Source of the DNA: a virus
Taxonomy: Duplodnaviria > Heunggongvirae > Uroviricota > Caudoviricetes
Length of the DNA: 27,458 nucleotides
Direction: 5' to 3' (one strand)
IMG/VR virus record: IMGVR_UViG_3300010885_065725
The translations under genes and the position numbers were made by a program. This document shows, in pieces, positions 1,824-27,457 of this stretch (its first letter is position 1; each line of letters opens with the position of its first letter). The notes beneath the pieces were generated by a model, which saw nothing but the letters and a program-made list of their open reading frames with translations, was not told the origin of the DNA and ran no database searches.

Positions 1824-2779
1824 GTAAAAAAATATCAGCATCAACAAAAAATACTGTCTCTTCTAATGGCAGTCTGATGGAAAGAATGATGAAGGCAAGT
1901 ACAATAGAATCTTCTGATGTATTGTCCGAATCTAAATTTTTTACTAAAGCAGACATGATTTCTACTTCTATTCCTGCAATAAATGTTGCACTATCCGGAA
2001 AATTGGATGGTGGGTTTGTGCCTGGGTTGACATTGTTTTGTGGTCCTTCGAAACATTTTAAAACAAGTTTTTCTTTGGTGCTTGCGAAAGCATATATGGA
2101 AAAATATGCAGAATCAGTTTTACTATTTTACGATTCTGAATTCGGGACACCACAAGATTATTTTAAATCATTTGGTATCGATACCAAAAGAGTATTGCAT
2201 ACTCCTATTACCAATATCGAAGAATTAAAATTTGATATTATGCAACAATTAAAAGAAATTGATCGAGGATCAAGAGTAATTATTGTCATTGATTCTATTG
2301 GAAATCTTGCATCAAAAAAAGAATTTGATGATGCAATGGACGGTAAATCTGTTGCCGATATGTCAAGAGCAAAGGCATTGAAAGGTTTGTTCAGAATGGT
2401 AACTCCACATCTTACCATGAAAGATATTCCTATGATTGCAATTAATCATACATATCAGACCCAAGAATTATATTCTAAGGCAGTAGTGTCTGGTGGGTGT
2501 TTAATATCAGGAACAAGAATTAAAATGTTTGATGATTCTTTAAAAAATATTGAAGATATACAAGTAGGTGATTTAGTTATCACATTAGATGGTCCAAAGG
2601 TAGTGACGCATTCTTGGAATCCAGATACTTTAGAAGATGGTGAACCTGAATGTTATAAAATTACATTTGAGGATGGTTATGAAGTAATTTGCTCAGATGA
2701 ACATCCATTTCTTATAAATGAAAAATTTGTGTATGCTAAGGAGCTTTGTATTGGGGATGAGATAACCACAATTAAGTGA
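1820..2779 (+). CDS. uvsX: UvsX recombinase N-extein (226 aa) fused to split-intein N-half
   Basis: P-loop GPSKHFKT, YDSEFG, IDSIGNLASKKE, ADMSRAK; homology stops at VVSGG and CLISGT begins. Confidence 0.95.
   Translation: MSKKISASTKNTVSSNGSLMERMMKASTIESSDVLSESKFFTKADMISTSIPAINVALSGKLDGGFVPGLTLFCGPSKHFKTSFSLVLAKAYMEKYAESVLLFYDSEFGTPQDYFKSFGIDTKRVLHTPITNIEELKFDIMQQLKEIDRGSRVIIVIDSIGNLASKKEFDDAMDGKSVADMSRAKALKGLFRMVTPHLTMKDIPMIAINHTYQTQELYSKAVVSGGCLISGTRIKMFDDSLKNIEDIQVGDLVITLDGPKVVTHSWNPDTLEDGEPECYKITFEDGYEVICSDEHPFLINEKFVYAKELCIGDEITTIK
2498..2776 (+). mobile_element. Split intein N-fragment in UvsX (93 aa)
   Basis: Block A CLISGTRI, IEDIQVGDLV, block B CSDEHPFL, ends AKELCIGDEITTIK*. Confidence 0.93.
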
Positions 2780-2854
2780 ATTTTCAATTCTTATATATGG
2801 ATGAATGGTGCTATTGTCAGAAAAAAATTAAAACTATTAAATAATGGGGTATAA

Positions 2855-2959
2855 ATGAAAATTACAAATATTGAAAAAGTTGGTAAACAAAAAGTTTATG
2901 ATATTACAGTGGCAGATAATCACCAATATGTGCTTGAAAATGGAGTAGTAACTCATAAT
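2855..2959 (+). mobile_element. Split intein C-fragment in UvsX (35 aa), Thr+1
   Basis: MKITNIEKVGKQKVYDITVADNHQYVLENGVVTHN|T: block F VYDITV and block G HN. Confidence 0.93.
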
Positions 2960-3400
2960 ACAGGAATATATTATTCTGCCAGCAATATTTTTATTATCGG
3001 CAGACAACAAGAAAAAGAAGATACAGAAATTGTTGGATATAATTTTATTATAAATGTAGAAAAATCTAGATTTGTAAAAGAAAAATCTAAAATTCCTGTT
3101 TCTGTTCTATATGACGGAGGAATTTCTACATGGTCTGGATTATTGGAAATGGCACTGGATTCTGGTCATGTTGTCAAACCTTCTAATGGATGGTACAGCA
3201 AGGTAGATGTTGCTACAGGTGTAATAGAAGATAAAAGATATAGAATAAAGGATACAAACACAAAAGACTTCTGGATGCCTATTTTGATCGACAAGACATT
3301 CAGAGATTGGACAGAGAATACATATAAATTAATTTCTGCAGAGATTATTTCTAATAGTGAACTAGAAAAAGTTGCAGAAGAAATGGCAAAGACATCTTGA
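2855..3400 (+). CDS. uvsX: Split-intein C-half fused to UvsX C-extein (146 aa)
   Basis: After THN the sequence resumes UvsX: TGIYYSASNIFIIGRQQEK, VEKSRFVKEKSKIP, KPSNGWY. GGGGT SD at 2846-2850. Confidence 0.93.
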   Translation: MKITNIEKVGKQKVYDITVADNHQYVLENGVVTHNTGIYYSASNIFIIGRQQEKEDTEIVGYNFIINVEKSRFVKEKSKIPVSVLYDGGISTWSGLLEMALDSGHVVKPSNGWYSKVDVATGVIEDKRYRIKDTNTKDFWMPILIDKTFRDWTENTYKLISAEIISNSELEKVAEEMAKTS

Positions 3401-18538: not shown

Positions 18539-19168
18539 ATGAATACTGCTGATATATTAATAAAATATGCGTCCCAATATCCTGTCTTACATAAAAGTGA
18601 AGAACTGGAACTTGTAAGAGATTGGAAAACCAACAACACAAAAAAATCTTTCGATACCATAATAAATTCTAATATAAGATTTGTTACTCTTATTGCAATG
18701 AAATATAAATCTAAATTGCCTCTAGAAGATCTTGTTCAGGAAGGCATCATTGGCATGATAAAATCATTAGAAAAATTTGATCCTGATATGGGATTTCGTG
18801 TCGTCACATTTGCAAAAATGCAAATAAAAAATGAAATATACAAATATATAATAAGAAATAAAATTGACTTTATTTCTTTTGATGAATATGATGCTATAGA
18901 AAAAGCTGAAATCGATCAAAAAAATGTATGTGAAGAGATAATAAGAGAAAATGCTATTTCTACAAAAATGAAAGATATCTATAAAATAATAGATGAATTG
19001 ACAGAAATAGAAAAAAGGATTATAATTAATTATATAATGTACGAAAAGGAATCTTTCGATAATATCGCAAAAATATATGACATAAAGAAACCAAAAGTAA
19101 ATAAAATATATAAATTGGCAATACGCAAATTGAAAATGAAGATGAGCAACATTTTACGTGAGGAATAA
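18539..19168 (+). CDS. Sigma70-family factor (short, regions 2 and 4)
   Basis: SNIRFVTLIAMKY, EDLVQEGIIGMIKSLEKFDPDMGFRVVTFA, LTEIEK..IAK..AIRKLK. Confidence 0.88.
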   Translation: MNTADILIKYASQYPVLHKSEELELVRDWKTNNTKKSFDTIINSNIRFVTLIAMKYKSKLPLEDLVQEGIIGMIKSLEKFDPDMGFRVVTFAKMQIKNEIYKYIIRNKIDFISFDEYDAIEKAEIDQKNVCEEIIRENAISTKMKDIYKIIDELTEIEKRIIINYIMYEKESFDNIAKIYDIKKPKVNKIYKLAIRKLKMKMSNILREE

Positions 19169-19169
19169 T

Positions 19170-19982
19170 ATGGGAATAATGAGACTACAAGAAACAGATT
19201 CTTTTGATGCATATATGAGGAGTATCAAAAGAATTCCTAGACTTTCAAAAGAAGAACAACATCTTCTTGCAATACGATACTACGAAAATAATGATATGGT
19301 CGCATGCAAACAATTGATAGAATGCAATCTCAGGTTTGTTGCATATATCTCTAGACGATTCGATGGCTACAATATCTCTATGATGGACATTGTACAAGAA
19401 GGGAATTATGGATTGATGCAGTCACTGAAGAATTATGATCCGTATTCTGGAATGAAACTGATGACATTTTCGGTGTACTACATAAAATATTATATTCTTG
19501 AATATGTCAAAAAGAATTTTGGTATCTTCAAGATAGCTTCGAAAAGTCAAAATAAAGTATTCTTTAATATCAAAAAAATGACCAAAGAAGAAGATATTTC
19601 TAATTCTATATCAGAAAAGACAATAGAAAGAATTTCTTCTGCACTCAACGTATCAAAGAAAAGTGTGATAGATACTCACAAAAAAATGTATTGTCGTACC
19701 ATAGAGGCTTCTGGTGACGATTTTGTTATTGAAACAGAAGATATATACTTTGGAATAGAAAGAGAAGAAGAAGAAAATATCAAACAGGAAAAATATCAGA
19801 AAATAATCTCTGCAATAGAAAATCTGAACGAAAGAGAAAAAACTATTCTCGAAAGAAGATTTTTAAAAGAAATTCCTGATAAACTACAAGAGATCGCAAA
19901 GGAACAAGGATGCTCTCTTCAAAGAATTTCTGAGATAGAAAAGAGAGCAATCAAAAAGATACAAAAGGTCGTTTTATTCTAA
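19170..19982 (+). CDS. rpoH: RpoH (sigma32)-like sigma factor
   Basis: NLRFVAYISRRFDGY, DIVQEGNYGLM, RpoH-box-like QNKVFFNIK, LNEREKTILERRF. GAGGA SD favours ATG 19170. Confidence 0.8.
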   Translation: MGIMRLQETDSFDAYMRSIKRIPRLSKEEQHLLAIRYYENNDMVACKQLIECNLRFVAYISRRFDGYNISMMDIVQEGNYGLMQSLKNYDPYSGMKLMTFSVYYIKYYILEYVKKNFGIFKIASKSQNKVFFNIKKMTKEEDISNSISEKTIERISSALNVSKKSVIDTHKKMYCRTIEASGDDFVIETEDIYFGIEREEEENIKQEKYQKIISAIENLNEREKTILERRFLKEIPDKLQEIAKEQGCSLQRISEIEKRAIKKIQKVVLF

Positions 19983-20534
19983 TAGATTTTTATCTGTGTC
20001 ATGTGCATACTTGCACATATAGAATGCATCTATAATATCAGAGACAGGACTAGAAAGAACATTCGAAGGAAAGAATTTCATTAGATCTACTCCTGTCTCT
20101 TCTACAAATGCAGTATACATTGCTTCCTTGTTCGCATTCCCTTTTCCTGTAGCAAATTTTTTTATCGAAGAAGGAGCAACAACATCAAATAATATCTGCC
20201 TATGGAACATCTTATGTTTAAGTACTCCAGTAAGTTCTCCTATATGGAATACTGTACCTTTCGCGCCCATTGCATATCCTTCCATGACAACACAATCCTT
20301 TCTTGTAAGTAATTGGAGTGCCCAATTGCCAATGAAATCGAATCTTTTTTCATTGAAAGTATATTCTTTGTGTGCAGAACCAATGATGTTGTTATGCAGT
20401 CGTTCTACTAATTTTTTCTTGTCCGTAAGATAAAAACAAGAACAATTCTCAAATTTAAATTCTTTTTCTTTTGGAATTGTGACAATTGCAGGAGATCTCA
20501 TAGAATAATCTATTCCGACATAATTTCCATTCAT
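19974..20534 (-). CDS. RuvC-like nuclease / Holliday junction resolvase
   Basis: VGIDYS, VVMEGY, IKKFATGKGNANKEAM, SDIIDAF. Confidence 0.85.
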   Translation of the reverse strand: MNGNYVGIDYSMRSPAIVTIPKEKEFKFENCSCFYLTDKKKLVERLHNNIIGSAHKEYTFNEKRFDFIGNWALQLLTRKDCVVMEGYAMGAKGTVFHIGELTGVLKHKMFHRQILFDVVAPSSIKKFATGKGNANKEAMYTAFVEETGVDLMKFFPSNVLSSPVSDIIDAFYMCKYAHDTDKNLLE

Positions 20535-20967: not shown

Positions 20968-21753
20968 CTATAGTGGTGTAACAGGGGTGACATTTCCTTC
21001 CAATTCTTGCCACATTTCATCGATAGTATAATATTCGTCTTTTGTTGCTTCTAATGGATTTACTTCTGCAGTATAAATTTCAGAAATTGGTGCAGAAGTA
21101 TCGATATCATTTATTATATTTGTTGTTACATGCTTTATAATAGATTGTTTCTTTATTGGACCGTACAGATTAATTTTTGCAGTAAATTCTAATGTATACA
21201 TTATTCTTCTTTCTTCTGACCAATCTGCATCATAATTATCCGAAGAAGTGACATTATGTAATGTAACAGGAACATCCTGTAATATTCCCATTTCTGGAAT
21301 AGAATTCACTGTTACATTGAAAGATGGAGTAAAAAATGGTAATATTTGTTCTATTATTTGTAATATGTCATCATTTGATTTTGATATTACATTTAATTCA
21401 AAAGAAAGAATATATGGAACAGGAGCATACAAAGAATTCAATCTATTTGTGTCTCCAGCAACAATATTAGAAAATTGATTTGTACTATTCAATTTTCTTT
21501 CTGGATCATATCTCAAAGTTGTCATATCGAATGCCATCCTTGGTAGTGTCATCATTGTAGATTTATTCAGATCAGGATTCTGATTTATTCTTGCCATCCA
21601 TTTTTCTTTTGAAGAATATGCTATAGGCACAGCGACCTGTTGTATTTCTACTCCAGCAGAATTCTTTCTTGAAATACGAAGATTAGAAAATAAATTTCCG
21701 AATACGACAATAGTATTTTTTATGGTCTGATTATAGAACTGTGTGCTGAACAT
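20968..21753 (-). CDS. gp15: Tail sheath stabilizer / tail completion protein
   Basis: FGNLFSNLRI, VPIAYSSKEKW, TLPRMAF, QIIEQILPFF. Confidence 0.93.
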   Translation of the reverse strand: MFSTQFYNQTIKNTIVVFGNLFSNLRISRKNSAGVEIQQVAVPIAYSSKEKWMARINQNPDLNKSTMMTLPRMAFDMTTLRYDPERKLNSTNQFSNIVAGDTNRLNSLYAPVPYILSFELNVISKSNDDILQIIEQILPFFTPSFNVTVNSIPEMGILQDVPVTLHNVTSSDNYDADWSEERRIMYTLEFTAKINLYGPIKKQSIIKHVTTNIINDIDTSAPISEIYTAEVNPLEATKDEYYTIDEMWQELEGNVTPVTPL

Positions 21754-22268
21754 TATTCACCTTCAATATGAGGCACAATCTCTTTTTGCCAGTAACTTCT
21801 ATTACCAATTTTTTTAGAAACATTAGGATCATTTTTTAATTTTTTTACTTTTTCTACTGCTGCAGTGTATTGTACTTGTCTTCTTTTACTTCTTTCCACA
21901 TCGAACCCTTTATAATCTGATCCAACAAATTCATGTTTTTTATGATATATATTTGGATCTGCTTTAGGTTTGAAATATTTCGATTCTCCAGAAGGTTTCA
22001 CAATCACAGAGTCTTTTATGTGAGGCTCATGTTCTGTGTCCCAATCCGGAGAATGTAAAAAAGATATGTTATTACTTTTTTTATTATATTTTACTATGGT
22101 ATGCGTAAAATCTGGATGTTCTTTGTGCAACACAGATAATGCTGACGCATGAACATCTGCTGGGATATCCGGATGACCTTCTACATAATCCTTATGTACA
22201 TACAAATCATCGCCCATACGTTTACCAACTTTTTTATCTTCTAATAGAAAAGTAATAAAAGATTTCAT
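21753..22268 (-). CDS. His-rich protein resembling the C-terminal domain of DNA-phosphorothioation-associated methyltransferases; capsid-targeting-like N-terminus
   Basis: MKSFITFLLE; GKRMGDDLYVH, ISFLHSPDWDTEHEP, PNIYHKKHEFVGSDY, IGNRSYW. Family match recalled, not searched. Confidence 0.6.
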   Translation of the reverse strand: MKSFITFLLEDKKVGKRMGDDLYVHKDYVEGHPDIPADVHASALSVLHKEHPDFTHTIVKYNKKSNNISFLHSPDWDTEHEPHIKDSVIVKPSGESKYFKPKADPNIYHKKHEFVGSDYKGFDVERSKRRQVQYTAAVEKVKKLKNDPNVSKKIGNRSYWQKEIVPHIEGE

Positions 22269-23011
22269 TATTTTTGCCTAATAATAATATGACCACTTTT
22301 TACAGAAACATCATGAGTTTCTTCTGGAAATACTTTTTTTATTTCTGGTAAATATGTATCAGTTTTTGCATGATTTTGCCATGAACTGCCTCTACCTTTG
22401 TCATTTTTAGTTTGTCTAGCATTACCAGTCTTATCACCTTCATATACAGTTATATGAGCAACACCTGTTTTAGGTTTCATAAAAGACTTTACTTTATGAT
22501 ATGCTGCTATTCTGTGTTCAGGTTCTTTAATTACATTTGCAACATTATTTAAACTTGTATAATCAGCTTTTCCTTCAGTCTCTTTGTCTACATTAGCATT
22601 ATGTTCTTCTGATCTATTAAATGGATCAGAAATATGTAATTTCGCGCCCTTTACATTACTTTCTACATGTTCTTTACCAGCATCATATTTACCGCCACCA
22701 ACATCAACATTTACACTATTTGGTTGTATTAGTCCTGTTTTTACTGCATGTTTTAAACCTGCAGAAACTTGATTCAAAGAAGTATCTGCACTAGTATGTT
22801 CTTGTGATTCTTTTATTGCATATTTTGCTTTCCATGCTGCAGATCTTGCTGCCATTTCAGTGTCTGCTTTCGCATGACGCTTTTCCATTTCAGATTTTTG
22901 AGAAAGTAATTCCTCTTCCTTTTCTTTTGTTCCAAATCCTTGTGTCTTTAATTTTTTGGAAAGAGCTTCTCTTCCAAAAACTTCCGCAATAATTTCTTTA
23001 TATGTTTTCAT
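22268..23011 (-). CDS. Class I SAM-dependent methyltransferase-like protein with capsid-targeting-like N-terminus
   Basis: MKTYKEIIAE; motif I VDVGGGKYD, DPFNR, NNVANVIKEPEHR, ITVYEGD, WQN. Confidence 0.75.
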   Translation of the reverse strand: MKTYKEIIAEVFGREALSKKLKTQGFGTKEKEEELLSQKSEMEKRHAKADTEMAARSAAWKAKYAIKESQEHTSADTSLNQVSAGLKHAVKTGLIQPNSVNVDVGGGKYDAGKEHVESNVKGAKLHISDPFNRSEEHNANVDKETEGKADYTSLNNVANVIKEPEHRIAAYHKVKSFMKPKTGVAHITVYEGDKTGNARQTKNDKGRGSSWQNHAKTDTYLPEIKKVFPEETHDVSVKSGHIIIRQK

Positions 23012-23014
23012 TTT

Positions 23015-23737
23015 TTATATAGATCCAAATATATTATTTTCGTCAAAATTTTGAATGCCAGTATTATCTGTTGTCAACTCATTATTTATATTGTTTTTGT
23101 CTATCGGAAATTCTATATTATTATTTTTCAATTGTTCTTTTGGTGCATATAATATATTTTCTCCTGCAGCAAGGAAAGGATATTTTAAATTATCTAGTGC
23201 AGCAGGAACAGCAATATCTACTTGTTCTGCACCTGTCTCAATTATTTCACTGCCATATTGGAACAATGTGCATTCTAATTTATAAGAATAATAATCATTC
23301 AATTCATAGAAAGGATCTTTGTGATCAACAAATTTTATTTCAAAAATTTTATTTGCAGTAGGATAATATATTAAATCTCCTTCTGTAGGACGATTGTCTA
23401 ATATTGCGACACCTGTACTTCCGATACTGTCTTCCCATCTCCTTCTGGAAACTCTGAATATCGCCTCTTCCTTGTTTTCTACTCCAAATCTTGTGAATAT
23501 TTCATTCTGACCACCGAAACGATCAAATGATTCCAGATACATTTCTATAATAATAAATTGTTTGAAATAAGAGAGATTGTCTTCCCCAAATAACATATCA
23601 GGATTGACCAAAGTTCTCGGAAGATAATATACGTCTATGCCCATTATCTGGATAGATTCGTCAATAAGATCTTTTACAAGATTTTTCTCGTTTCTTCCTC
23701 CAATACCACTTCCACTTTGAAATCCACTTCTGATCAT
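23015..23737 (-). CDS. gp14: Neck protein
   Basis: GIDVYYLPR, IEMYLE, RPTEGDLIYYP, FEIKFVD..PFY. Confidence 0.93.
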   Translation of the reverse strand: MIRSGFQSGSGIGGRNEKNLVKDLIDESIQIMGIDVYYLPRTLVNPDMLFGEDNLSYFKQFIIIEMYLESFDRFGGQNEIFTRFGVENKEEAIFRVSRRRWEDSIGSTGVAILDNRPTEGDLIYYPTANKIFEIKFVDHKDPFYELNDYYSYKLECTLFQYGSEIIETGAEQVDIAVPAALDNLKYPFLAAGENILYAPKEQLKNNNIEFPIDKNNINNELTTDNTGIQNFDENNIFGSI

Positions 23738-24760: not shown

Positions 24761-25249
24761 TTATGGTCCTAATTGAATCAAAGATGTAGTTGCCCCAACT
24801 GCTGGCATAGTAAGACTGAATGCAGATGCAGTTATTGTAGTAGAACCAAAATTAAATACTGCAATAGCTTTATTGCCTTTACTAACATTATATAAAAGAA
24901 CAGCATCAAAAGCTGTTGCGCTCAAACTTGACCATGCTATTGCTGCAGAAGGTTGCCATGTTGCTGTAGTACCAGTAGTTACTGGCATCACAACAGGAGC
25001 ATTCGCATTTGTCACAGCAACTCCTCCGACAGTATAACCACCACTAACAGTAGGTAATTCAATATTAGCACCACTTACATATACTGTAGTAGTAGCATCT
25101 AAATTAGCCGCAGGATAATATAATGCAGCATTAATTGTGTCTGTTGCTGCAGCAGGAACATTAGTCATGCCAGAAGGTTTTCCTAAACAATGTACACCAC
25201 ATAAAAGTTCCAATTTAAAACTAGTGCATATTTTTGATACATTTGCCAT
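24761..25249 (-). CDS. Probable virion structural protein
   Basis: CTSFKLELL, AALY, GYTVGG, AFDAVLLYN..KAIAVFNFG pattern of a widespread phage protein; GAGGA SD. Confidence 0.7.
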   Translation of the reverse strand: MANVSKICTSFKLELLCGVHCLGKPSGMTNVPAAATDTINAALYYPAANLDATTTVYVSGANIELPTVSGGYTVGGVAVTNANAPVVMPVTTGTTATWQPSAAIAWSSLSATAFDAVLLYNVSKGNKAIAVFNFGSTTITASAFSLTMPAVGATTSLIQLGP

Positions 25250-25300
25250 TTTTTATTTCCTCAGTTTTTTTTGTTAATTAAAATTTTTGTTATATAGACA

Positions 25301-25308
25301 TATTTATA
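25301..25308 (-). promoter_or_regulatory. T4-type late promoter
   Basis: - strand TATAAATA at the upstream gene's stop, 51 nt before the ATG at 25249. Confidence 0.5.
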
Positions 25309-27457
25309 TTAATTTAATATTTAATATTATTTCCTTATCAAATATTGCATTATATTCTTCCGTAGCAACCAAATTACTTTTCAATATTATTTCTTTATCA
25401 AATATTATATTGTATTGAGTATTTATATCAAACCCAACAAATAATTTTTCTTCATCAAAATATGCAAATAATATACTTTCTGCAGAATAATTATAAATAT
25501 ATTTTGAAATTATGCCATTGCGAACACTAATAGGATTAGAAACTAAACGTATGGATGGTCTATGTTTTCCAACAGATGCAGATATTATTAATGGTGATAT
25601 ACTATTATTTGATATATCAGAATATATCCCTCTACTAATTCTAAATTTAGATTTATTTCCTAATAGTGGTGTCAATGTTGCCAATTCCATTGGCGAATTT
25701 GTTATATTTACTAAAATAGGATTTGATTGTAAATTATAATTTATTTTAGTAGATATTGCTCCATTTCTAACAGTCGCAGAAACACCTTTTATCTCTATAT
25801 AAACATTATTTCCAATGATTCCATAATTTATATATGAATTCAATATTGTCTTGGATATTAAGGTTCTAATATTTTTTTGATCTATTCTTCCTGCAGAAGA
25901 AGAAATAATTTTTCCTGATATACTATTATTGTATATATGTGGAGAAACATTTCCAGCAATAGAAATTATTTCTGCAGGAGTTTTTTTGTAATAATTTTCT
26001 GAATATAAAAAATCTGCATAATATGTATTACTTAATATTTTATATTCTTGATGATATAATCTTTCAACAGTAGAAACTTTTATAATAGTTTCAAAGGCAG
26101 AAGGCGCATATGGATATTCTGCATAGTACGGATCTGCATAATATGTCCCATCAAATGCTCTTTCTATTACTACCTTTAATTCACCGAGAGTAGCAAATGC
26201 TGTCTGTCCTCTAACTCCTGCAGATAAAAAATTAAAATTTGCAGAAATAGCAATACCATTTAATCCGATACTATTAGAATTTTTTATTTCTCCTACAATA
26301 GAATCAAATTTATTTCCTGTAATAGATATACTTAGTTGTACATTATTACTATTTGTAGATATTGTATTACCGAATAATTCATTACTTAAAATAGGTCGTC
26401 TAAGTAATCCTATATTATTGTTAATTTGATATGCACCAAATTCTTTTTCTATTTTTGTAGTTATTGCTCCTATTCCGGAAGTTGTATATATTCCTGTTAT
26501 AGGTTTTGTTGGTATTAAATTGTTTAATGATGAATTTATTGCATATTTAGATATTTCAAAAGAAATATTAGAAACCGGAGATCCTAAATTAATTGCAGAA
26601 GAAATTTTATTTATAGATATAGAAGTACCAAGAACATTTTTTATAGCTGTTATTGATATTCCTACCAATTCTTTAGAAATTTCTACAGGTAATATGCCTA
26701 ATAATACATCAATTTTTGCTGCATATATTTTTCCATCAAATCTTCCTTGTGTTGATGTAATTATAATACCAGACTGTTCTTTTTGGATATTTGTTCTTAA
26801 AAATCCTGTTGTTGTTGTTATTGGGTCAATATTTATAGATTTTTCTTGCCCAAAAATACCAGAAGAAATTTGTGATCTATTTCCTGCCAGAGCTTTAATA
26901 GTAAGAGGAGTTCCAGTAATAATTCCTATATTAGTAGATATAGAAATTCCACTTAATGAATTTAGTAATATACCTGATGCAGCAGTTATTGAATGTGAAT
27001 TGTATATATATATGGGATTTACATATATCGGATCTACATATACACGATCTTTTAAAAGTGTTTCAATATTTGCAACAATATTTCCGATATTAGATGATAT
27101 TAATTTTCCTACAATTTGTTGTGGAAAACTATATTGATTTGCCTGTATACCAATTCCATATAGTGTACTAGATATATCAATAGGAATATTTGTAGCAATA
27201 GTAGAAGTTATTTTATTTGGTAATAATTCAAAAGATATTTTGGACAATATATCCTTATAATATGCATTAAATAAATTTCCTGTTAAAGTGTTTTGAATAT
27301 CAATTCCAGGATTATTTCCTATATTAGAAGATATTGCAATACCAGAAGAAATATTATATGTATATGTATTACCTGATTTTGTTGGAGATCCTAATGCAGA
27401 AGATATTGCAATACCAGAAGAAATATTATATGTATATGCATTGCCTGAATTTGTTGC
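25304..27457 (-). CDS. Large Ile/Ser/Gly/Asn-rich repetitive structural (fibre-like) protein, 5' end outside window
   Basis: The frame stays open from TTG 27247 to the window edge (ATNSGNAYTYNISSGIAISSALGSPTK...), so the ORF is at least 717 aa. Confidence 0.7.
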   Translation of the reverse strand, partial: ATNSGNAYTYNISSGIAISSALGSPTKSGNTYTYNISSGIAISSNIGNNPGIDIQNTLTGNLFNAYYKDILSKISFELLPNKITSTIATNIPIDISSTLYGIGIQANQYSFPQQIVGKLISSNIGNIVANIETLLKDRVYVDPIYVNPIYIYNSHSITAASGILLNSLSGISISTNIGIITGTPLTIKALAGNRSQISSGIFGQEKSINIDPITTTTGFLRTNIQKEQSGIIITSTQGRFDGKIYAAKIDVLLGILPVEISKELVGISITAIKNVLGTSISINKISSAINLGSPVSNISFEISKYAINSSLNNLIPTKPITGIYTTSGIGAITTKIEKEFGAYQINNNIGLLRRPILSNELFGNTISTNSNNVQLSISITGNKFDSIVGEIKNSNSIGLNGIAISANFNFLSAGVRGQTAFATLGELKVVIERAFDGTYYADPYYAEYPYAPSAFETIIKVSTVERLYHQEYKILSNTYYADFLYSENYYKKTPAEIISIAGNVSPHIYNNSISGKIISSSAGRIDQKNIRTLISKTILNSYINYGIIGNNVYIEIKGVSATVRNGAISTKINYNLQSNPILVNITNSPMELATLTPLLGNKSKFRISRGIYSDISNNSISPLIISASVGKHRPSIRLVSNPISVRNGIISKYIYNYSAESILFAYFDEEKLFVGFDINTQYNIIFDKEIILKSNLVATEEYNAIFDKEIILNIKLI
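25321..25416 (-). repeat. Coding 60 bp-period duplication (YNxIFDKEIIL x2)
   Basis: Near-identical 36 nt blocks at 25321 and 25381. Confidence 0.8.
27326..27438 (-). repeat. Coding 72 bp-period tandem repeat (YTYNISSGIAISS x2)
   Basis: Identical 41 nt at 27326-27366 and 27398-27438. Confidence 0.9.

Follow-up and report, generated by a model that had tools for sequence, protein, structure and literature searches.

A 27,458-nt stretch of DNA from an uncultured member of the Caudoviricetes (IMG/VR record IMGVR_UViG_3300010885_065725; hereafter the window) carries, inside a block of T4-like neck and tail genes, two small open reading frames (ORFs), ORF A and ORF B, each of which begins with a ten-residue leader resembling the peptide by which phage T4 loads proteins into its head. 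ORF A has the modelled fold of an S-adenosylmethionine (SAM)-dependent methyltransferase, ORF B is a conserved domain of unknown fold, and the two are adjacent or fused in many phage loci. With moderate confidence, we read A and B as late-expressed cargo of a T4-like phage, marked by a capsid targeting sequence (CTS), which would be packaged, trimmed and ejected into the host and would act there together.

The T4 prohead protease gp21 cleaves after L/I-x-E. The CTS of T4 reads MKTYQEFIAE (PMC8442874), and suppressor genetics in T4 have linked residues 4 and 7 to targeting and residues 8 and 10 to processing (PMC9026906). As the initial annotation of the window had stated, the N-terminus of ORF A is identical to the T4 CTS at eight of ten positions; the next best of the 62 first-methionine N-termini in the window reached four of ten. 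The leader pattern was fitted in the window by A and B only, with Y4, I7 and I-A-E at positions 8–10 in A, and F4, F7 and L-L-E at positions 8–10 in B. Among 56 leaders of A and B homologues, position 4 was F or Y throughout (100%), position 7 was F or Y in 88% and F, Y, L or I in 100%, position 8 was L or I in 91% and position 10 was E in 89%. A leader of the MK[ST]F..FL.E type was kept in 16 of 20 B homologues.

Most A homologues are 189 aa long, with the leader directly abutting a conserved QEHTSA.TS core. Distant A homologues that lack the leader begin right at this core, and the leader is therefore an add-on. In AlphaFold2 (AF2) models it forms a short, poorly anchored helix outside the fold, with low predicted local distance difference test (pLDDT) values in B. 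ORF A further contains a basic insert of 58 residues (residues 11–68, isoelectric point (pI) 9.7), with a long helix at residues 29–69 in the AF2 model. The second cleavage site predicted earlier (AIKE, ahead of the enzyme domain) is indeed present, as I66-K-E68 before S69, and aligns with the L/I-x-E of the leader in the 189-aa homologues. Among aligned homologues the insert was seen in P0022 and P0024 only, and a tblastn match in locus L004 also spans it. Both predicted mature proteins are basic, with a pI of about 9. The presence of the T4 head-loading tag at the start of A and B makes their injection with the DNA probable.

Two IMG/VR contigs that contain an A-B pair were analysed over their full length, G001 (135.7 kb, 29% G+C) and G002 (210 kb, with terminal repeats). 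Both encode a Peptidase_S77 protein, the family of gp21 (E = 4e-37 in G001 and 8e-20 in G002). Nine ORFs of G001 bear the leader, namely A, B, a DUF6321 protein, a NUDIX hydrolase, a 648-aa ADPrib_exo_Tox protein and four unknowns. By its sequence, the ADPrib_exo_Tox protein is predicted to be of the same ADP-ribosyltransferase (ART) type as T4 Alt, a proven packaged and injected enzyme (PMC5512222). A tblastn search of cultured phages with this Alt-like ART gave no match. At least five identities to the T4 tag were found in G001 at 7 of 201 first-methionine N-termini versus 2 of 592 internal methionines, one of the latter two being probably a true start. Leader-bearing genes cluster in locus L013 also. 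With the leader kept at the positions functional in T4, and carried by an Alt-like ART and further enzymes of a relative that encodes a gp21-type protease, the capsid-targeting reading put forward at the outset is well supported by comparison. Our literature search found no paper describing CTS leaders in marine or cyanophage T4-likes.

The seven leader-bearing ORFs of G001 other than A and B carry the form MK[TS]FKEF..E (L086 3643–4496 and 11857–13241; L090 8385–10331; L092 12591–13625). A leader of this kind was also seen in L003, where a DUF5856 protein (2710–3102; phrog_858, 'starvation-inducible transcriptional regulator') begins MKTFKQLISE.

The AF2 model of A (mean pLDDT 88.4) shows a class I methyltransferase core with a Rossmann-like seven-strand fold, and both the Gly-rich motif I (D103-x-G105-G-G107) and the acidic D129 are invariant. 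Foldseek matched the model to Trm9 (E = 7e-7), and the best VIA match was Rv0560c, a heterocyclic-toxin methyltransferase (Z = 13.7, root-mean-square deviation 2.9 over 148 residues). The VIA ranking was flat: its 50 best matches were methyltransferases acting on small molecules, sugar nucleotides, peptides and tRNA, and none of the 50 was a DNA methyltransferase. Core motifs comprise motif I DVGGGKYD, DPFNRSxxHN, NVxNVI, YEGD and WQ. ORF A of the window retains every residue that is invariant over the 83 viral A loci (Q70, S74, T77-S78, D103, G105-G107, D110, D129, N132-R133, H137-N138, N156, N159, Q212 and F228). A homologues carry PF13489; Pfam searches with A and B themselves returned no family at E up to 1 (LPD families included for B), and PDB sequence searches with the A and B profiles gave nothing meaningful. 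From its modelled structure, A is predicted to be a class I SAM methyltransferase, intact and of the small-molecule/tRNA type. The lack of a DPPY/NPPY motif noted earlier extends to both proteins: neither A nor B contains a [DNS]PP[YFW] motif or a cysteine, and the catalytic signatures of adenine-N6, cytosine-N4 and cytosine-C5 DNA methyltransferases are therefore absent.

B was likewise modelled with a confident fold (pLDDT 92.6), from which the leader stands apart. Comparison with PDB structures produced no convincing relative (best Foldseek E = 0.1; best VIA Z = 4.4 among 48,161 chains), and no ASCH/PUA-like match was seen, which does not prove that the fold is new. A language-model atlas search with B yielded no usable match. 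In the ESM Atlas, B corresponds at template modelling (TM) scores of 0.71–0.77 to part of a viral 348-aa cluster, a quarter of whose members carry Methyltransf_23, and to four clusters named 'DNA phosphorothioation-associated putative methyltransferase' (TM 0.71–0.75 for these four). A profile search with B collected 1135 cluster representatives. Near-invariant over 167 domains are G15-K16, Y23, H25, D75, E81-P82, H109, K111, Y119, G121-F122, R130 and W160, a pattern more suggestive of an active site or a ligand pocket than of a passive adaptor. B is a conserved module, probably with a catalytic or substrate-binding role.

In three B homologues of 293–391 aa (P0012, P0111 and P0112), B is followed by a fused C-terminal domain that has a DG.HR-like motif. 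The two meet in P0112 at an internal leader, MKTFKDFINE, as though two tagged genes had been run together. An atlas search led from this C-terminal domain to viral clusters bearing ParB_N (score 0.94), which is a lead only, and no PDB sequence match to support the ParB likeness was found.

The initial annotation had likened the pair to the SAM domain and the C-terminal domain of the NCBIfam family TIGR04096 (dnd_rel_methyl, 'DNA phosphorothioation-associated putative methyltransferase'), a likeness that held for B and only distantly for A. Residues 8–162 of B match positions 317–461 of the 478-residue model (E = 5.3e-10; 38.6 bits, far below the curated cut-off of 150 bits), in addition to the structural correspondence given above. 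With A, neither the full-length sequence nor the isolated core matched the model at E up to 10. Alignment of the A family by hhalign with the N-terminal core of a genuine TIGR04096 member gave E = 4.5e-5 (probability 69%), with DxGxG, DP..R and VLNVIE..ER motifs in common, and the A homologue P0102 matches positions 30–100 (E = 4.5e-6). The C-terminal match of B and the core alignment of A thus suggest that the proposed architecture is right, and by these profile comparisons phage A and B are placed as distant relatives of TIGR04096 and not as members. Genuine members score 590–613 bits, come mostly from Planctomycetota and also from Armatimonadota, and lie beside, or are fused to, a second copy of B. 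Some bacterial TIGR04096 loci add DndB-, DndC- and DndA- (cysteine-desulfurase-) like genes. The bacterial loci are L106–L173, for example L130 (6098–8570) and L113 (6426–8582). A literature search found no paper describing the function of TIGR04096.

Association of A with B in relatives, proposed earlier as a survey, was found in many phage loci as adjacency or fusion. An A-type methyltransferase is carried by 38 of 150 B representatives, always directly adjacent to B, with gaps of 3–73 residues and in either order, even in proteins of 2000–4000 aa. Natural A-B fusions include P0087 and P0140, and A adjoins B in L003, L005–L008, L013, L014 and L041. Many A domains sit in phage ORFs of 1000–3900 aa, and some of the giant A-bearing proteins tested also carry ART-PolyVal, LPD23, LPD39 or HIRAN. 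The proteins that contain B reach 5587 aa, and one B-bearing giant has a sub-threshold ART-PolyVal match. To judge by sequence, the A-B dyad appears to be the one that phage polyvalent proteins contain in fused form and that recurs, more distantly related, in TIGR04096 proteins of bacterial phosphorothioation islands. A complex prediction for A (residues 63–247) with B (residues 12–171) scored 0.00, which is no verdict and counts neither for nor against binding.

In tblastn searches of cultured phages, A gave a single match, to an uncultured 485-kb phage, and B matched KVP40-like vibriophages only. In Vibrio phage KVP40 (L001, 3929–4891), the 320-aa KVP40.0371 consists of a B domain and an unassigned C-terminal half of ~ 160 aa, and is flanked by two genes annotated as prohead protease inhibitors. 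In the uncultured 485-kb high-GC jumbo phage LR745208 (L002, 2786–4477), which is not related to the window phage, a B-like ORF is followed on the same strand, ~ 600 bp away, by an A-like ORF, both leaderless.

Table 1. Features of the A-B pair and its immediate surroundings in the window
Feature	Positions	Strand	Evidence
gp14 neck protein (context)	23015-23737	-	PF11649, E 7e-30; phrog_460
TATAAATA, T4 late-promoter consensus, inside the 3' end of gp14, 72 nt upstream of ORF A	23083-23090	-	motif match
ORF A	22268-23011	-	247 aa, begins MKTYKEIIAE
ORF A leader, residues 1-10 (MKTYKEIIAE), CTS-like putative propeptide ending I-A-E	22982-23011	-	8/10 identical to T4 CTS; homologues keep positions 4, 7, 8 and 10
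ORF A residues 11-68, basic helical insert ending at the second I-K-E site	22808-22981	-	alignment, tblastn, AF2 model, pI 9.7
ORF A residues 69-247, predicted class I SAM-dependent methyltransferase core	22271-22807	-	Foldseek, VIA, PF13489 in homologues, family invariants
ORF B	21753-22268	-	171 aa, begins MKSFITFLLE
ORF B leader, residues 1-10 (MKSFITFLLE), ends L-L-E	22239-22268	-	leader conservation; low pLDDT
ORF B residues 11-171, conserved domain of unknown fold corresponding to the TIGR04096 C-terminal domain	21756-22238	-	TIGR04096, E 5.3e-10; AF2 model
gp15 tail sheath stabiliser (context), start overlaps ORF B stop	20968-21753	-	PF16724, E 2e-72; TAATG junction

The gene structure described at the outset, with 1-nt stop/start overlaps of the two ORFs with each other and with gp15 and 12 histidines in each, was found as claimed, with the coordinates listed in Table 1. 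The A/B and B/gp15 junctions both read TAATG, and 3 nt separate the end of gp14 from the start of ORF A, so that the pair is translationally coupled to gp15 within a neck/tail gene block, a late context. Upstream lie gp13-like and gp14 neck genes, and downstream gp15, the small terminase and a RuvC-like gene; G+C content of the window is 30.5%. The position between neck and tail-completion genes stands for the window, where gp14 and gp15 flank the pair, and is not conserved in relatives. The gp14-A arrangement was matched only by L004; a conserved gp14/gp15 insertion site was considered and rejected, the site being specific to the window phage and L004. No dnd or ssp neighbours of A and B were found, the genes recognised in the window being phage structural genes only, and PADLOC gave no defence-system match.

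The 12 histidines amount to 4.9% of A and 7.0% of B, against a window median of 1.7%, and these two contents take first and third place among 37 window ORFs. Among A homologues (P0021–P0110), histidine content was ~ 5–11% in leader-bearing forms versus 0.6–3% in leaderless distant ones; it was 4–7% in B homologues. Histidine enrichment seems to go with the capsid-tagged forms.

Elsewhere in the window, at 19158–20534, a plus-strand sigma-factor-like ORF with a GTG start converges on the RuvC-like gene that follows the small terminase, and no large terminase gene adjoins gp16. Upstream of gp13 (24761–27247) lie a 162-aa ORF rich in Ala, Thr and Val, for which Pfam and PHROG gave nothing significant, and a 647-aa ORF with Ile/Ser/Asn-rich repeats.

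Under the reading we favour, the CTS of A and of B would dock each protein to the prohead scaffolding core, and a gp21-type prohead protease would trim A after I-A-E and B after L-L-E, with a possible second cut in A after I-K-E68. The basic mature proteins would remain in the head, exit with the DNA at infection and, early in infection, A would act with B in the host. As for the target, a nucleic acid or a nucleotide is the likeliest, a guess to which the partners of B (methyl- and acetyltransferases, NUDIX and possibly ParB-like domains, the last a lead only) and the dnd context of the bacterial relatives point. Sites of canonical adenine-N6, cytosine-N4 or cytosine-C5 DNA methylation would not be the target, and the structural class of A too argues against ordinary DNA base methylation.

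Several observations weigh against this reading. The phage itself is seen only through its 27-kb window, the gp21-family protease being that of G001 and G002. In AT-rich genomes, N-termini tend to be rich in Lys, Thr and Phe codons, and leader-like starts could be overcounted for that reason, although the internal-methionine control argues otherwise. The TATAAATA motif was found 14 times in the window versus 7.8 expected, which is not a significant enrichment, so that its occurrence upstream of A is a weak hint. In G001 and G002, gp13, gp14 and gp15 are contiguous and the A-B pair lies elsewhere; with only L004 resembling the window, the pair is therefore taken to be a mobile cassette that landed here in a late neck/tail operon. 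In L003 the pair sits among replication genes. Finally, B is missing from the surroundings of about 66 of the 83 viral A loci, 54 of 150 B representatives stand alone, and some other B representatives have a divergent Methyltransf_23 or a GNAT domain beside B. A and B are therefore frequent, not obligate, partners, and the proposal that they work together is carried by the many natural fusions and adjacencies and qualified by the prevalence of A without B.

These last figures are what one would expect if A and B were both packaged by means of the leader and acted independently, A being self-sufficient and B a separate effector in the same mobile cassette. Most giant A-bearing proteins also lack B, B joins GNAT or other domains, and leader-bearing cargo genes cluster anyway (L013, G001). 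We nevertheless regard independent action as unlikely, as A and B in one polypeptide are always adjacent, in both orders and even in the giants, and their fusion is old enough to be common to bacterial TIGR04096. The leader, on the other hand, might not be a working capsid tag at all, but a module by which AT-rich T4-like phages recombine or initiate translation. A and B would then act late and inside the cell that produces the phage, before packaging, on substrates such as phage DNA or virion proteins. A late structural operon suits a late cytoplasmic function as well, the location of the L003 pair is compatible with it, and conserved leader DNA could serve cassette exchange. We hold this to be rather improbable, given that conservation is at the protein level and falls exactly on the residues used for targeting and cleavage in T4, that the leader is found on an Alt-like ART whose T4 counterpart is proven to be packaged, that both domains are among those used in polyvalent delivered proteins, and that leaderless homologues show the leader to be an add-on.

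Very little weight is given to DarB-like self-protection, in which A and B would methylate bases of the incoming phage DNA against restriction. One precedent is P1 DarB, a methyltransferase packaged in the head and protecting DNA in cis (PMC5512222), and the bacterial relatives of the pair do occur in DNA phosphorothioation islands. However, A and B have no (D/N/S)PP(Y/F/W) motif and no cysteine, DNA methyltransferases are missing from the 50 best structural matches of A, and no helicase partner is present. A more speculative extension of the CTS-cargo reading, in our view improbable, is that A and B form an undescribed phage-host conflict module, in which B, as a new catalytic fold, would work with a small-molecule-type methyltransferase to modify a defence-relevant target at DNA entry. 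Such a target could be DNA carrying phosphorothioate marks, or else a signal of the immune or nucleotide kind. In cells, the module would have its counterpart in the TIGR04096 proteins of dnd islands; T4-like phages would deliver it as separate CTS-tagged proteins, and other phages within polyvalent giants.

The most economical reading of the tagged proteins as a group is that this lineage marks single effector domains (methyltransferase, B, ADP-ribosyltransferase, NUDIX) with the T4 address peptide, and that other phages fuse the same domains into giants. CTS packaging as a strategy is already known; the cargo here is uncharacterised and widespread. Provided that the leaders function as they do in T4, sequence alone would reveal which proteins uncultured T4-like phages inject. 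Relatives of A and B are widespread, as the 1135 cluster representatives for B illustrate, and none has been studied in polyvalent proteins or phosphorothioation islands, so that the two-gene phage version is the simplest handle on the function of a methyltransferase with this partner domain. The pair also connects delivery by separate tagged proteins with delivery by giant fused ones.

Compared with the CTS cargo of T4, A and B share the ten-residue leader (aromatic at position 4, hydrophobic at position 7, L/I-x-E at positions 8–10), the basic mature proteins, the grouping of unrelated cargo under one leader, a T4-like phage backbone and, in relatives, a gp21-family protease. Unlike the T4 proteins, which are small DNA-associated inhibitors, A and B are predicted enzymes or enzyme-like domains; their genes lie inside a neck/tail operon, and ORF A has the additional 58-residue helical segment and second candidate cleavage site.

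Large polyvalent proteins of phages and conjugative elements, as described by Iyer, Burroughs, Anand, de Souza and Aravind in 2017, are predicted to be delivered with the invading DNA, and solo versions of their domains have been described beside late structural genes (PMC5512222). A and B agree with this picture, as they occur inside giant multi-domain phage proteins and as solo versions in the late structural operon of the window. The methylase dyad of that paper is however a DarB-type pair of N6-adenine methyltransferase and SNF2 helicase, and a term search of the paper found neither the methyltransferase class of A nor the B domain. P1 DarB itself is a head-packaged methyltransferase delivered with the DNA, as proposed for A, but is a 2255-aa N6A-methyltransferase/helicase loaded via DarA and Hdf and not by a CTS, whereas ORF A has no NPPY-type motif. 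TIGR04096, finally, appears to have the same two modules in the same order, with the methyltransferase core motifs and the C-terminal B domain in common; the phage version differs in being split into two genes, in bearing capsid leaders, in its lack of dnd neighbours and in lacking a middle region of ~ 150 residues of the 478-residue model.

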